Shown piece after piece: positions 49,041 to 63,204 of a stretch of 64,000 bases of DNA; position 1 is the stretch's first letter, and every line of letters begins with the position of its first letter. The notes under the pieces are model-generated. The model did not search any database. It saw only the letters and a list, made by a program, of their open reading frames with translations, and was not told the DNA's origin. The stretch spans positions 626,336 to 690,335 of the forward strand of contig CBDDCX010000007.1 of the NCBI GenBank assembly GCA_965226375.1. Reading direction: 5' to 3'. The translations under genes were made by a program, and so were the position numbers. Source of the stretch: Longimicrobiales bacterium (GTDB lineage Bacteria > Gemmatimonadota > Gemmatimonadetes > Longimicrobiales > Gaopeijiaceae).

Positions 49041-50388
49041 TTTAGCGCCCCCGATTTCTCTGGACAGTAGATTGGCAAAGACAGCGGGTCCAGAGAGAAA
49101 GGGACGTGATGGCCCAGAAGCCGAGGGAGAACAAGGCGACCGCAGGTCGTGAGAAGGTACCCGAGCGGTGGAGTGCCCAGCAGAAAACGGAGGTGGTGCT
49201 GCGCCTGCTACGGGGTGAGGACCTGGTGGAGGTCAGCCGCGAGGTACAGGTCTCACCGCCGGAGCTGGAGGAATGGCGGCGGGTGTTCCTGGAGACCGGT
49301 CAGCAGGGACTGAGACGCCGGGGCCGAGACCCTGGAGAACGGGAGCTGACCCGGACCCGGGCGAAGCTGGGAGAGTTGACGATGCGACTGGAGCTTGCGA
49401 GAGAACTCCTGGAAAAAAGGGGGTACGGGGACGAGCTGGAGAAGCTCTTGAAGCGCGGACGCGGGTGAGTCCGGGGACAGGGCGGCTCTACCCTCTGACG
49501 ATGATCTGCGAGGTCTGGCGGGTGGGGCGCTCGACGGTCTACGCGGCCCGAGATCGAGAAGAGAGCGACGGGCCGGCAGGGCTGAAGAAGCGCGGACCGA
49601 AGACGAAGCTGAGCGACGAGGAGTTGGTGGAGGAGATCCGACAGGTGCTGAAGGAGAGCGACTTCCTGGGCGAAGGCCACCGGAAGGTCCGGGCCCGTCT
49701 GAGAGCCAAGGGGATCGGTGTGGGCAAGAACCGCGTGCTGCGGCTGATGCGGGAGAATGGGCTGCTGGCCCCCGTACGGCGCGGAAAGCACCCGCGTGGG
49801 GACCGGAGCCACAGCGGCCGGATCACGACGGATGTGCCGAACGAGCTGTGGGGTACGGACGCGACGCGGTTCTACACGAAGGAGGATGGGTGGTGCTGGT
49901 TCTTCGTGGCGGTGGATCACTGCATCACAGACGTGGTGGGCTGGCACGTGGCGAAGAAGGGCGATCGGTGGGCAGCGCTCGAGCCGATCCGCCAGGGTGT
50001 ACGAACCCACATGGACGGCTACGCGCCCAAGATCGCTCTGGGGCTCGGCCTACGGCACGACTGGGGCCCTCAGTACACCGCCCATCAGTTCCAAGGAGAG
50101 CTGGCCTGGCTCGGGATCCGCTCGACGGCCTCGTACGTAGGAGAGCCGGAGTGCAACGGCGTCGCGGAACGCTTCATGCGGACGCTGAAGGAAGAGTGCC
50201 TGTACCTCCACGACTTCGAGAGCCTCGAGGAGGCCAGGCAGGAGATCGATGCGTTCATCGAACGCTACAACCGCGGGTGGCTCCTGGAGCGGCACGGGTA
50301 TCGGACCCCGGCCCAGGTCCGTCAGGAGCTCACCCTGAAGGCGGCATGATTAGGCCGCCGACTTGTCCAGGAAACCGGAACCGGTACA
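49041..50388 (+). mobile_element. IS3-family element (orfA 49106-49468, orfB to 50349, A6G slippery site 49413-49419)
   Basis: IRs TTTAGCGCCCCCGATTTCTCTGGACA / TGTCCAGGAAACCGGAACCGGTACA; 'LWGTDAT', 'LRHDWGPQY', 'NGVAERFMRTLKEE'. Confidence 0.9.
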
Positions 50389-52083: not shown

Positions 52084-53301
52084 TCATCTATCGACACTGG
52101 TCACGCAACGAGCATTGAGTATTTGGAGAAATTCGTCCGCATCGACTTTTTCGAGTCGGCTGGCAATAAATTTGATAGAATTCCCCTTCTCCCACTCCTC
52201 CCATTTCTCTCGTACGGCACCACGCGCGCTCGAAAGGAGTTCGTTGCGGTCCGGGTGAATGATCAGGAAGCACCGGCTAGGCTTCGCATAGTACCACTCG
52301 ATCACTATCGAGTTGATCCCCTTATCCCCGAAGCTGTATCCGCAGACCACTAATTGATCAGCCTCACCAAGTGTAGAACTAAAACGGTGATGGAGATCAA
52401 GAAATATCGTTTGACTGTACGCTGCCACCTTGTTGAATGTACCGATCAACAGAAGGGGCCTGCCATCGACCGCCGTTTGACAGCTGCCGTCCTTACTTCG
52501 CGTGTGGTCATGATCGACGTTAAGAGGAATACCGATTCTCTCGTCATACCACGAGGAAGAACTGTCCGGACGAAAGCGGAACCAATTGACGGAGCCGTGC
52601 AGCTTCAGGAATGGGATCTTGTTCTTCGAATAGAGATCTCGGTTCCAATACCTGACACCGTTCTCTTCATCGGAGAATCCGTCAGCGATGGATATGTCCT
52701 GCGTGCTCAGGAAGTTTTCTAAGTGGGTGTCATGACACAGCGTCGAAATGCCGGTAAGGTGGCCAGACTTACAGGCCTCCACAATTATCTTCAGGTGATC
52801 AATGGGCTCTGGACTTGGGCAAAGACTTCTCCACACAATGTCCGAGATGTAGTTACACGTCTCTTCGAAAAGGGTAGACAAATCGTTCGGTACATCTAGA
52901 TGGTACGGTTTTTTTGGATTGGCATTCTCTGAGTTTGCAGCTTCGACCAATGGCAGCATGTCGGATTTCGCCTCGGTCATGAACCGGTGAATGGCGGGAT
53001 TCTCCATCTCACCGGAAGCCTCGTCCGATGCTTGCTTAGCCAAGTAAAACAAAGTTTCGTAATTGATCGGTCGTTTGTTCCGTGCCGCCGAGTAACGTTC
53101 CGCTTCGGCGAACAGCCAACGCACCATGCAGTTAGCTAGCTGCACAGAAAGGCTCATTGGTAATTTGGAATTAGTGAAGTATGATCCATCAGTGTGCCTT
53201 TCGACGCCCTTCCCTGACAAGATCAAATCGGTCAGACCTTGGGTGGTAGGGAAACCGGCTGGCACTGACGAGCCGGATCCCAACAAAATCGCGGTCTTCA
53301 T
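52084..53301 (-). CDS. SIR2-like (SIR2_2) domain protein, putative anti-phage NADase
   Basis: 'ILLGSGSSVPAGFPT', 'STLCHD' (TxNYD-like), 'FLKLHGSVNW', 'LVVCGYSFGDKGIN'; visibly lower GC. Confidence 0.85.
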   Translation of the reverse strand: MKTAILLGSGSSVPAGFPTTQGLTDLILSGKGVERHTDGSYFTNSKLPMSLSVQLANCMVRWLFAEAERYSAARNKRPINYETLFYLAKQASDEASGEMENPAIHRFMTEAKSDMLPLVEAANSENANPKKPYHLDVPNDLSTLFEETCNYISDIVWRSLCPSPEPIDHLKIIVEACKSGHLTGISTLCHDTHLENFLSTQDISIADGFSDEENGVRYWNRDLYSKNKIPFLKLHGSVNWFRFRPDSSSSWYDERIGIPLNVDHDHTRSKDGSCQTAVDGRPLLLIGTFNKVAAYSQTIFLDLHHRFSSTLGEADQLVVCGYSFGDKGINSIVIEWYYAKPSRCFLIIHPDRNELLSSARGAVREKWEEWEKGNSIKFIASRLEKVDADEFLQILNARCVTSVDR

Positions 53302-53632
53302 GTGTGTGACATCCTGCTGCCAGAATACTTCACATACTTGGAGCAACTACGGAGGTAGACATTGAGAAGCATGAGCCATTAACACCTGATGCGATGGCTA
53401 TTGTCCCTCTGAGGAGGCAGCGTAACGGTGCGAGGCAGCAGCATCTCATGTGAGGGCCTCCGGACGCCGGCGGCTGAGAACTGATCGCTGGTTAGTGCAC
53501 AGGGTGTTTGCCTCGATTGCAACAATCGTCACATGAGAATTCAGGACAGCCACGGCCCCCGAAATCGCCTAGCAGGGTCGTAACGGATGGCAAGGCACGG
53601 GATTACCAATGCTAGATGTCGGGGGTGGTATT

Positions 53633-54178: not shown

Positions 54179-54739
54179 GGAGAATCCTCCGAATGTTATA
54201 CGACTCTTTTAATCTATCCGTAGCGCAACAATAGGAGCGACGGTTGCGCAGGGTCCTATGCTCTTCCTCCTCCTCGTGTCAGGTCTGGCCCGAGTGGAGC
54301 ATCCCTGGGCGTGCCACTTGCTCGGTATCCTTATGCCTTAAAGGCTGCGGTGTGTATATCTCCTGACTGCCCACACAGACAGGGCATCGTTATCGATGCT
54401 TCATGGAACGCCGGGGCACGGGTTTCTGTGATCTTCTGGGTGCCACGCGATATCCGGCCCCTGTCGGGAAAGTCATGAGGAGAAGTTAAGGGAGGCCCCG
54501 GAAAAGTCCAAGACGACACAGGCTGACTGTGTCCTCCGCAGACGCCTAATGCCCGGGATCTTCGCTGGACTACTGTGGGTCCGTTGCGTATGCCGCGCGA
54601 TCTGAAGCCGCCTGCGGCGATAGCTCGAGCGGAACCTGTGGCGGGGCCTGGTCCGGCGGACGCGTTTGTTTAGCGCACGGGAGCCAGCCCACGTATGTGG
54701 ACGCCCCCCTGGTTGGCAAGCCTGACGTCGTACCGAAGT

Positions 54740-55070
54740 CGGTGGCAGTCAGGTCAGGTACGGTCGTATGTGCGGCCTCTTGGTGCGGCACATTTCTGGC
54801 CGCGGGCCCGTATGGTGTTCGTGAGATCGGATCCAAATCGCAATGGCGGGCTCGGTGGCCCATCGTAGGCTACTGGTTTTTCCGACCCCGTCTTGCCGAC
54901 CGTTTGCCCCTACCTTGTCCGCCGTCCTGCCTGCCCTCTCCAGTTGGGACCTTCCCAGCTCATGCCCATTGGGGTGATCGAGCCGTCACCCCCGATGATC
55001 TCATCTCTCGCCTCCTCCGGGTTCCAGGTCTGGCCAACGCCTCCTCGCTACACTGATCTGACTTGCAAAC
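54740..55070 (-). ncRNA. Putative bridge/seekRNA of the IS1111-type element (boundaries approximate)
   Basis: Non-coding region containing four short segments that match the element's target flanks and circle junction (see findings). Confidence 0.75.
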
Positions 55071-55071
55071 C

Positions 55072-56118
55072 CTACGCTGCAGCCTCAACGACCCTTGTCA
55101 TTCCCCGTGCCCTGTAGCTCTCCCCCTTCACCGTCACGGCCCAGATGATGCGCGCCATCCTGTTGGCCAGTGCCACCGCAACCACCTTCCTCGGCTTCTC
55201 GTCCAGCATCCGCCGAAGCCAGGGATCGGTGACCTCCCCCCGTCGGATGGCACTCGAGATGACCGACGTCGCCCCCAGGTACAGGAGCCTCCTGATGTCG
55301 CGCTGACCCATCTTCGTGATTCGCCCCAGCCGCTGGCGGCCACCCGTCGAGGATTCACGCGGCGTGAGCCCTACCCATGCCCCGAAGTCGCGCCCCGTGC
55401 GGAAGCTCTCCATCGGTGGCGCAAAGGTGTGGACCGCCATCGCCGTGAGCTCTCCCACCCCCGGGATCGTCATCAGGCGCCGGAGCGCCTCGTCTTCCCT
55501 CACGATCCGACGGATCTCCCGGTCCATCTCATCGATCTCCGCATCCAGGTCGTGGATCCGCTCGATGAGGAGGCGTATCGCGGGGGGTACCAGCACCGGG
55601 AAGAACTCCTCACACTCCGCGTACGCCTCTTCCAGCCTCCCGACGTTGTGGATCCCGAGCGGAACGACGAGTCCGAACTCCGCGAGGTGACCCCGCAGCG
55701 CATTGATCGTCTGCGTCCGCTGGCGCACCAGCAGCTCCCGGGCCCGGAACACCACCGAGCGTGCCTGCTCCTCCTCGGTCTTCACGGCCACGAACCGCAT
55801 CGTCGGCCGCTGGGCCGCCTCGACGATCGCCCCGGCGTCGTTGGCATCGTTCTTCTGCCTCTTCACATAAGGCTTCACATACACCGGGGGAATCAGGCGG
55901 ACTTCGTGGCCGAGCTCCTGGATCTGCCGCCCCCAATGGTGGGCGCTGGCGCACACTTCCATTGCGACCCGGCAAACAGGCTGCTTGGCGAGGAACTCGA
56001 GCAGCTTCGAGCGCGTCAGCTTCCTGCGCAGCACGGGCTCACCGCCCTCCGTGGCCCCGTGCAGTTGGAAGTACCTCTTCGAGATATCGATGCCGATGAT
56101 GCTCACCACCTTGTCCAT
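55072..56118 (-). CDS. IS110-family DEDD recombinase/transposase
   Basis: 'IIGIDISK', 'VAMEVC', 'KRQKNDANDA', 'GLTPRESSTGG' (catalytic Ser), 'VALANRMAR'. Confidence 0.97.
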   Translation of the reverse strand: MDKVVSIIGIDISKRYFQLHGATEGGEPVLRRKLTRSKLLEFLAKQPVCRVAMEVCASAHHWGRQIQELGHEVRLIPPVYVKPYVKRQKNDANDAGAIVEAAQRPTMRFVAVKTEEEQARSVVFRARELLVRQRTQTINALRGHLAEFGLVVPLGIHNVGRLEEAYAECEEFFPVLVPPAIRLLIERIHDLDAEIDEMDREIRRIVREDEALRRLMTIPGVGELTAMAVHTFAPPMESFRTGRDFGAWVGLTPRESSTGGRQRLGRITKMGQRDIRRLLYLGATSVISSAIRRGEVTDPWLRRMLDEKPRKVVAVALANRMARIIWAVTVKGESYRARGMTRVVEAAA

Positions 56119-56222
56119 GGATCCCTCCTCTCGTGTCCCGAACGCACCCCGTGTGCGTTCTCCTCACCCGGCGCACGATGGCGCCCGGGGGGGGGGGGCG
56201 TCCACTCCATCGCAATGTTTAA

Positions 56223-58220
<1,998 letters not shown>

Positions 58221-58222
<2 letters not shown>

Positions 58223-59612: not shown

Positions 59613-59771
59613 CGTGCAGTAATGCTCCTTAGTGTACACATAAACATTGATATATAATGAGTTAGGAGATTTACCATGCTCCGGAACGTCCAGTGCCACC
59701 CCTTGACAGCCACGTCATTTATGGGGCACTTTTCTGGGGCAGATTCCAGCAACCTCAATCGGTGCCCCAAC

Positions 59772-61052
59772 ATGCCGCTGACCGACACCGCCATCCGAAA
59801 GGCCAAGCCCCGCGACAAGCCCCGAAAGCTCTACGACAGCCGCGGCCTGTACCTCGAGATCGCCCCGCGCGGCACCAAAGCCTGGCGCTTCAAGTACCGT
59901 TTCGCCGACAAGGAGAAGCGGATCTCGATGGGCATCTATCCCGAGGTCTCGCTGAAGCTCGCCCGTGAGCGGCGCGACGATTCCCGCAAGCTGCTGGCCC
60001 GGGACATCGACCCGAGCGCCTACCGGAAGGCGCAGAAGCAGTCGAAGCGGCAATGGGCCAGGAACAGCTTCGAGGCCGTGGCCGCTGAATGGCTCGCCAA
60101 GCACTCGCCGAACTGGTGCGCGAGCTACGCTCGGCGACTCGAGCGCGATCTGGGTAGGGACATCTTCCCGCGGATCGGAGAGAAGCCGGTCGCGGAGCTC
60201 ACGGCACCGGAGCTGCTGGCCGCGCTGCGCCGCATCGAAGCCCGCGGCACCCTGGACACGGCGCATCGCACGCTTCAGGTCTGTGGGCGGGTGCTGCGCT
60301 ATGCGGTGGCAACGGGCCGAGCGGAGCGGGACGTGTCGGGGGACCTGCGCGGAGCCTTCCCTCCGGTGAAGCGGAAGCACTTCCCGGCGATCACCGACCC
60401 GAAGGAGGTCGGCCCGCTTCTGCGGCTCCTGGACGGCTACCCGGGCACGCTGCCGGTGCGGTGCGCGCTGCGTCTGGCGCCGCTGCTCTTCGTGCGGCCC
60501 GGCGAGTTGCGCAAGGCCGAATGGGCCGACATCGACCTCGATGGAGCCGAGTGGCGCTACACGGCGACCAAGACCGACACGCCGCATGTGGTCCCACTGG
60601 CGCGTCAGGCGGTCGAGATCCTTCGCGAGTTGCATCCCGTGACGGGGCACCACCGCTACGTGTTCCCGAATGCGCGCTATCGGCAACGCGACCGGACGAT
60701 GAGCAACACCACCTTTTGGGGGGCGTTCCGGGCCTTGGACATCCCTCCGGAACGGATGACGCCGCATGGCTTCCGGGCGATGGCGCGCACCATCTTGGAC
60801 GAGGTGCTGGGCTTCCGGCCCGACTTCATCGAGCACCAGCTGGCCCACCGGGTCAGGGACCCCAACGGCCGGGCCTACAACCGGACGGCGTTCCTGCCCG
60901 AGCGCCGCGTGATGATGCAGGCCTGGGCCGACTATCTGGACCGGCTCAGGGCCGGGGAAGAGATCGAGGCGACTCACGGAACCGGGGCTTTCCGAAATAC
61001 CAACGTCGCCGGGGATCCGGAACACCAACTCACGGCCCGCCGTTCCCGGTAG
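59772..61052 (+). CDS. P4-type tyrosine integrase
   Basis: 'MPLTDTAIRKAKP..KLYDSRGLYLEI', 'VRPGELRKAEW', 'HGFRAMART', 'QLAH..GRAYNR'. Confidence 0.95.
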   Translation: MPLTDTAIRKAKPRDKPRKLYDSRGLYLEIAPRGTKAWRFKYRFADKEKRISMGIYPEVSLKLARERRDDSRKLLARDIDPSAYRKAQKQSKRQWARNSFEAVAAEWLAKHSPNWCASYARRLERDLGRDIFPRIGEKPVAELTAPELLAALRRIEARGTLDTAHRTLQVCGRVLRYAVATGRAERDVSGDLRGAFPPVKRKHFPAITDPKEVGPLLRLLDGYPGTLPVRCALRLAPLLFVRPGELRKAEWADIDLDGAEWRYTATKTDTPHVVPLARQAVEILRELHPVTGHHRYVFPNARYRQRDRTMSNTTFWGAFRALDIPPERMTPHGFRAMARTILDEVLGFRPDFIEHQLAHRVRDPNGRAYNRTAFLPERRVMMQAWADYLDRLRAGEEIEATHGTGAFRNTNVAGDPEHQLTARRSR

Positions 61053-62440: not shown

Positions 62441-63204
62441 GCCCCTAACGGTGAGGAGCCGTTTGCAAGGAAGTCAACCCGTAGAAAACCTCCTAAATGC
62501 CTGTGGCGTTCAGAGACGTTCAGTACGGTACAGGGGCTGTTGGACACCGCCGCCAGCGGCTTGCCAAACGCCCCGTCGCCCTTCGCCGAAGGCTCCGTCA
62601 ATGGGTGCGGATCTCGACCGGACGTCGGCCTGCGCACGAACGATGCTGGGAATCTTCGAACCGGAGTGCCGTGTTCCGGGTCTGCGGCAGTCCGCAGCCG
62701 CGTTACTGCGGCAGATAGCTTGGGCGGGCCTATCTGGACGGGTCACAGCCGAAGCCCTCCCCCGCTGCTTCGGCGGCGTCCGCCGGGCTGGCTCGGAGCA
62801 CCTTACGGTGCAAGAGCCAGCCTACCCTTTGGGGCCACGCTTCGCGGGTCCCCGGCAGGGCTGGCAAGGGGTGGCTCCGCCCCCCTTCGATCCCCCGGAC
62901 GCCCGCGCTCCGGCGGAGTTCGCGGGCGGGGGGCTCGCCCCCCGTCCCTCTTGCCGGTGCGTCCTGAGTCGCGCGCCACACGAAGGACATATGGCGGCAG
63001 GCAGCTGCTGGGGTCGGTTGAGGGGACGCGGACTAGGAGAGGCCGCTAGAGGTCTCGTCGGCCAAATCAATGGGGAACTCGCCGAGGACACACGAGCAAA
63101 GTCTGCGCTCCGAACAGCCCTGCAGGCTCACCGTGGAAAACCAGGCAATGTTGATCCCAAAGCGCTGGCCGCGTAGTGGTCGGACCGGACCGACGCGGCG
63201 CATG

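Follow-up and report, generated by a model that had tools for sequence, protein, structure and literature searches.

An IS1111-family insertion sequence in the stretch of DNA that we analysed (64,000 nucleotides, hereafter the window) is likely to be an RNA-guided element with a target loop directed at a ColE1-like (MOBP5) origin of transfer (oriT) of mobilisable genomic islands, more precisely at its conserved core. The ends of the element, an open recombinase frame, guides that track the flanks and repeated insertion at the oriT site are all seen in the sequence. The element occupies 54694..56212 on the minus strand (1519 bp by the convention of a 7-bp left and a 3-bp right extension; PMC11187229, in part) and encodes a DEDD recombinase (transposase) of 348 aa in an open frame (55072..56118, minus strand), which contains PF01548 and PF02371 and scores 319 bits against the NCBIfam model NF033542 ('IS110 family RNA-guided transposase', cutoff 140). 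The residues D11, E54, D91 and D94 and a GLTPRESSTG motif are found at the motif positions, and in the alignment to 9t56_A the residue T258 takes the serine position of ISCro4, with Ser257 beside Thr258. As is typical of IS1111 transposases, a DEDD (RuvC-fold) domain is combined with a PF02371 transposase domain in a protein within the range of 330–350 aa. The ends are also of the IS1111 type (11–13 bp sub-terminal repeats, 7-bp left and 3-bp right extensions), with sub-terminal inverted repeats of 13 bp at 54697..54709 (right) and 56193..56205 (left), and so is the non-coding DNA 3' of tnp, which measures 378 bp from the stop codon to the end of the right repeat. Judged on these features, this is an intact-looking IS1111-family element that is ordinary as a recombinase. 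The first-pass annotation had proposed an apparently intact IS1111-type recombinase with a downstream bridge/seekRNA that reads its own target and donor. The intact appearance is borne out by the open 348-aa frame, the 13-bp repeats, the extensions and the downstream RNA, all of which are present, and the rest by the Pfam and NCBIfam matches, the ends, the guide-flank covariation and the consensus fold.

The element is present as a single copy in its own genome, where blastn and tblastn found no further copies of it, and its best plasmid-borne transposase relative has only 60% identity. Contigs from four sequencing runs contain neither a circle-junction joint nor an empty-site joint, and the cover of the element in RNA libraries (sequencing runs, contigs only) is thin and comes from mixed relatives. 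In addition, a G run at the left end (56188–56198 of the window), outside the coding region, is longer than in relatives and may be a local variant or an assembly slip; contigs from sequencing runs have T at 56189 and 56191 within it.

The conserved core of the predicted bridge/seekRNA, comprising a closing stem, a target-binding arm and a donor multi-loop, lies at 54760..54903 (minus strand) according to the alignment and consensus fold of 28 rows with <90% identity, the limits being those of the conserved core and not mapped RNA ends. Target guide 1 (AGCCUACG, 54864..54871, minus strand) would pair with the nic-side half of the target, and target guide 2 (CAUUGCG, 54839..54845, minus strand) with the half on the side of the inverted repeat, both being assigned by motif match, covariation and fold. 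In the consensus fold these two guides are unpaired and opposed across an internal loop, as expected for IS1111s, and the loop is closed by conserved helices that flank the variable guides and contain compensatory pairs; in single-sequence folding the unpaired probability of the guides is only 0.44–0.66. The donor guides are a short CCAU for the left end (54812..54815, minus strand; homologue alignment), which is invariant in RNA and DNA and therefore unproven by covariation, and ACAUACG for the right end (54765..54771, minus strand), which changes with the right extension ATA/ACA/AGA. The latter is 7 nt long, and its last five letters are identical to the donor in 55 of the 62 homologous rows. 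The guides had been expected to lie in two internal loops, which is true of the target guides, but the donor guides flank a hairpin inside the multi-loop; they do not sit, as in the IS621 type, in a second simple internal loop with both covering the core, and CCAU is followed by AC, not by the core. Moreover, a -35-like hexamer (54714..54719, minus strand) forms a conserved alignment column, and in the rebuilt circle junction a -10-like hexamer comes to stand 18 bp from it once the junction is joined; the pair probably constitutes a junction promoter.

The four motifs quoted in the first-pass annotation are all in place, and the target and the circle junction rebuilt from the window read as it had claimed. 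Its more specific readings need some adjustment. The donor match given as 9/9 is present, but conservation extends over 7 nt only (54765–54771, 62 rows), and in the match given as 6/7 the CCAU at 54812–54815 is conserved, but the next position is mismatched in 89% of the 62 homologous rows. The suggested rU-dG wobble is plausible, and the same guide occurs with a perfectly matching T site in L005/L224. As for the proposed CG core, the CG of the element is kept at the left junction, but the right junction can be GG, as in L005 (CG left, GG right), whose matching empty sites make up 5 of the 24 described below, and the left and right junction dinucleotides are unlike in 7 of the 62 rows. The CG is not strictly shared as a core, and mismatches are tolerated in the target core. 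In dinucleotide shuffles of the non-coding region (n = 3000), the 7/8 and 6/7 matches are common (p = 0.28 and p = 0.25), the 7/7 and 8/8 matches are rarer (p = 0.02 and p = 0.003), and all four matches jointly occur in 0 of 3000. Single-sequence folding of the whole non-coding region gave no better result than shuffles (z = −0.55), and among the Rfam families none covers the non-coding region, only intron models being matched. Compared with plasmids, this region has similarity to 140 records (60–80% identity over part of the query), and none of the matches listed reaches the oriT flank.

Since the element is single-copy in its own genome, the predicted consensus of other insertions had to be sought among relatives, and there the flanks do track the guides. 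Homologous loci (180) were reduced to 62 rows in which both ends are recognisable by the sTIR motif and from which duplicates were removed; 59 of these, with 35 distinct guide pairs, entered a permutation test, three having too little flank. Guide 1 matches its own flank at 4.09 of 6 non-core positions on average (permuted mean 1.77, maximum 2.6) and guide 2 at 3.34 of 4 (permuted mean 1.33, maximum 2.0), and none of 10,000 permutations reached the observed match of guide 1 or guide 2, although kin are not fully independent. Furthermore, siblings with 87–92% transposase identity (L002/L081, L001 and L206) have other guides, which match their other flanks. There are, as in IS1111s, two target-matching segments, the complement of the top strand coming first, that change with the target. 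Both target guides are real.

The nic-side half of the split MOBP5-type oriT is found by alignment at 54682..54693 (plus strand), and comparison with empty sites places the other half, the first arm and loop of the oriT inverted repeat, at 56213..56222 (plus strand). The nic, the position of which we carry over from ColE1 by alignment, presumably lies between 54683 and 54684, 8 bp from the insertion point. The rebuilt empty site was matched 24 times, in 11 of 151 family genomes and up to 6 times in one genome, with no control matches and no empty sites in viral contigs. Of these sites, 22 run on into the inverted repeat and a GC hairpin, and at the remaining 2 the loop of the repeat is occupied by a group II intron. 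Genes for NikA/MobC and/or a PF03432 relaxase start about 120–140 bp downstream of the empty site; a same-strand mob gene match is present at 8 of the 24 sites, and the conserved core and inverted repeat stand upstream of both mobC and an MbeA-like relaxase gene, the arrangement of a MOBP5 oriT, at 5 of the 24. Since 16 of the 24 sites have no same-strand mob gene match within 1.5 kb and the window has no mob gene match, many of the oriT-like sites would be relics. The relaxase is MbeA-like, with 42% identity to the relaxase of pAsal2 and 30% to ColE1 MbeA, its score against NF047848 being below the cutoff. In pAsal2, nearly the same core, repeat and hairpin are located 110 bp upstream of mobC, and the AGCCAG core hexamer is upstream of mobC in the same orientation in both pAsal2 and ColE1. 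The plasmid pAsal2 is placed in MOBP5, and its nt 590–621 are named as homologous to predicted oriTs (PMC3832669, in part); in the record that we examined, 590–621 is the GC hairpin. The target is apparently the nic-proximal core of a ColE1-like (MOBP5) oriT upstream of the mobC-relaxase genes in mobilisable islands. The look of the flanks had suggested an attC/integron or dif target, an idea that was dropped as the empty sites map upstream of mobC.

The region around the element looks like a degraded genomic island; it contains genes for a SIR2-like protein (52084–53346, minus strand; weak PF13289), a P4-like tyrosine integrase (59676–61052, plus strand) and an rve-domain transposase (49273–50349, plus strand). 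A second, variant oriT-like site is present at 62813–62960 of the window, with the same nic-side core, a different repeat and no mob genes. Similar sites occur in G000 on C6, C4 and C7, the one on C6 having an intact mobC-relaxase pair.

Copies carrying the same guides as the element in the window (class A) were recovered in two ways. A search with the junction, which is biased by its own pattern, gave 8 matches in 7 of 401 genomes, the own genome included, and an unbiased search that began from the guides gave 6 copies in 5 of 314 genomes, all 6 adjoining the nic half-site. The far flank is perfect in 4 of the 6 (the window, L222, L224 and L228); in L222 and L224 a complete oriT is split by the element, and L228 has kept mobC-relaxase downstream, while the other 5 of the 6 class A loci have no same-strand mobC-relaxase pair within about 6 kb of downstream sequence. 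In L226 the oriT is a variant with 2 mismatches, and the far flank of L223 is unrelated. L225, which may be a recombinant, has the oriT-side junction but different, intron-type guides; of L227 only an end remains. The six copies come from related genomes, the window and L228 having the same arrangement of IS and intron, and may not be independent. Five chosen genomes contain 15 perfect empty 13-mers, all of which lie in an oriT-like context, the control count being 0. A different IS110-family element is nested in the donor arm of the window-type bridge RNA in L226 (G350), and its own guides appear to match that bridge-RNA-coding sequence; one RNA-guided element thus appears to target the guide RNA gene of another.

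The same oriT is also entered by other elements. In the window a group II intron (56223..58221, plus strand; profile and Rfam matches), with an RT/maturase at 56728–58119, sits in the loop formed by the inverted repeat of the same oriT; it is 3'-truncated near 58221, and the distal oriT arm and the mob genes are missing behind it. In L205 an intact copy of the intron is followed by the second arm of the repeat and the hairpin. Neither the oriT identity of the target nor this adjacent intron on the same site had been part of the first-pass annotation. The intron is found in the repeat loop in several genomes (the window, L188, L191, L205 and L228). Among 30 loci with related RNAs, two further classes of insertion were seen. 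Class B (L258 and L259) occupies a hairpin that lies across the nic, about 14 bp away from it. Class C elements, which have the opposite orientation, enter within 1–2 bp of the predicted nic; they have 10 matches in 8 of 314 genomes. The exact guide is present in 8 of these matches, of which 6 lie in a full oriT context and 2 are bare motif matches. The transposases of both classes have 61–63% identity to that of the window and form a separate, well-supported clade (tree of 28 rows with midpoint root, L011 and L275 being too short to be included). Because the class B and C guides differ in sequence, position and orientation, targeting of oriT has most likely evolved on more than one occasion. 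One intron-targeting guide pair is common to both clades (L255/L081 and L272), which indicates that an exchange of guide loops is possible as well.

Related elements with other targets or guides were observed as well. Domain I of one and the same group II intron is targeted at two different positions by two guide classes (L206:6470-8020, L002, L081, L255 and L272), and in L205 and L206 a 1345-bp IS110-type element is at a third position of the intron. The siblings L001, L006 and L011 (87–89% transposase identity) lie just inside the left end of another IS1111, and the guides of L001 match such a left-end site. L281, a class C variant with a changed guide, stands beside an oriT-like site with ColE1-like nic-adjacent bases.

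By analogy with the tested IS1111s (PMC11187229, in part) and IS621 (PMC13626964, in part), we assume that the element would form a circle whose junction makes a promoter, that the RNA would pair with both strands of target and donor, and that the recombinase would place the circle, in a single orientation, between the nic and the oriT inverted repeat at a distance of 8 bp from the predicted nic. Being conserved, non-coding, present in several copies and renewed by incoming islands, an oriT would be a host-neutral landing site. We infer that the likeliest benefit of targeting it is that of a conserved, non-coding, multi-copy landing site, as attC or the Tn21 ends are for other IS1111s. A class A insertion, which moves the nic 1.5 kb from the inverted repeat, probably weakens or abolishes the mobilisation of the island itself. 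We would suggest only tentatively that IS1111s have repeatedly evolved guides against the nic region of one oriT family and act as RNA-programmed conjugation regulators, in which classes A and C would freeze islands in the chromosome and class B would ride the leading end of the transferred strand, in a layered conflict with IS1111s that target the oriT-invading intron and each other's bridge RNAs.

The main rival of the landing-site reading is hitch-hiking, in which oriT is chosen so that the element rides conjugative transfer, the nic and 8 adjacent bases staying intact and the element being the last DNA transferred. It fits best with class B, which lies on the other side of the nic and leaves nic and inverted repeat together, and it agrees with the intact 8 bp on the nic side and with the mobC and relaxase genes retained downstream in L228. 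However, class A separates the inverted repeat from the nic, and in five of its six loci no same-strand mob pair is present in the 6 kb or so downstream; class C is so close to the predicted nic that, given the biology of the MOBP relaxosome, it should block nicking. On balance we consider hitch-hiking unlikely.

It is quite improbable, in our view, that the site is some other cis site borne by the islands, such as a mobC operator or promoter or a recombination site, to which the element would still be guided by its RNA. The nic is predicted by alignment to ColE1, adjacent mob genes are missing at most sites and the palindrome could serve as an operator, yet the core hexamer, its orientation and its position upstream of mobC are common to ColE1 and pAsal2, and the hairpin is a published predicted oriT segment (PMC3832669, in part). 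That the guide matches are due to chance, or are fossils unused by the element, is hardly credible: two of the four are common in shuffles and the whole non-coding region folds no better than shuffles, but the covariation across homologues largely refutes this, as do the compensatory pairs around the variable guides and the siblings whose different guides match different flanks.

The IS1111 family and its mechanism are already known, as are IS1111s directed at cis sites belonging to other mobile elements (attC, Tn21 ends), and as one more programmable tool with known recombinase chemistry the element is ordinary. For the specialist the novelty is the target, that is, an RNA-guided element aimed at a conjugation origin by means of at least three guides, which are spread over two distant transposase clades, with a group II intron at the same site as well. 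No report of an IS110/IS1111 aimed at oriT or nic was found in a literature search that covered the main text of mostly openly available papers, and, among the papers listed, none of a group II intron in an oriT. The word 'oriT' does not occur in the text of PMC11187229 (in part), and bioRxiv 2026.08.14.744561, bioRxiv 2026.03.19.712850 and PMC10127599 are, in the parts available, only incidental to this question. An oriT as the target of an IS1111 is apparently undescribed, and the target logos or supplements of PMC11187229 and PMC11208160 may hold one unnamed. With the present loci it becomes testable whether IS110/IS1111 elements choose a target as a safe haven, for hitch-hiking or to sabotage other mobile elements, and the sibling set, with near-identical scaffolds and different guides, offers natural retargeting and core-mismatch rules for an IS1111 scaffold.

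Compared with ISEc11, ISKpn4, ISPst6 and ISPa11 (PMC11187229, in part), the element is similar in its downstream non-coding region, 13-bp sTIR, 7+3 bp extensions, transposase of 330–350 aa with the GL-P----S/TG motif, top-strand guide 5' of the bottom-strand guide and natural re-direction among close relatives. The main difference is that those elements target a short linear site, attC or REP, whereas the element in the window is directed at the nic region of a MOBP5 oriT. It shares with IS621/ISCro4 (PMC11208160 and PMC13626964, both in part; PDB 8wt6, 9t56) the DEDD recombinase, an RNA with target and donor pairing on both strands and, presumably, the circle-junction promoter. In contrast to these, the RNA is downstream, the guide order is reversed, the donor guides are in a multi-loop, as described for many IS1111s (PMC11208160, in part), one donor guide is no longer than 4 nt, mismatches are tolerated in the target core, and the position of the catalytic serine is taken by Thr258, next to Ser257. 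Like IS4321/IS5075 on the Tn21 terminal repeats and the attC-targeting IS1111s, it would parasitise a conserved cis-acting site of another mobile element, but the site in question is a conjugation origin, which different guide classes strike at three positions and into which a group II intron has also inserted. The target, in turn, has the core hexamer and orientation of the MOBP5 oriT-mobC-mobA module of ColE1 and pAsal2, again with an inverted repeat and a GC hairpin ahead of the genes for NikA/MobC and an MbeA-like relaxase; it differs from that module in being located on chromosomal islands, often as a relic, and in relaxase motif III, which is H-V-H here and L-E-L-N in ColE1.
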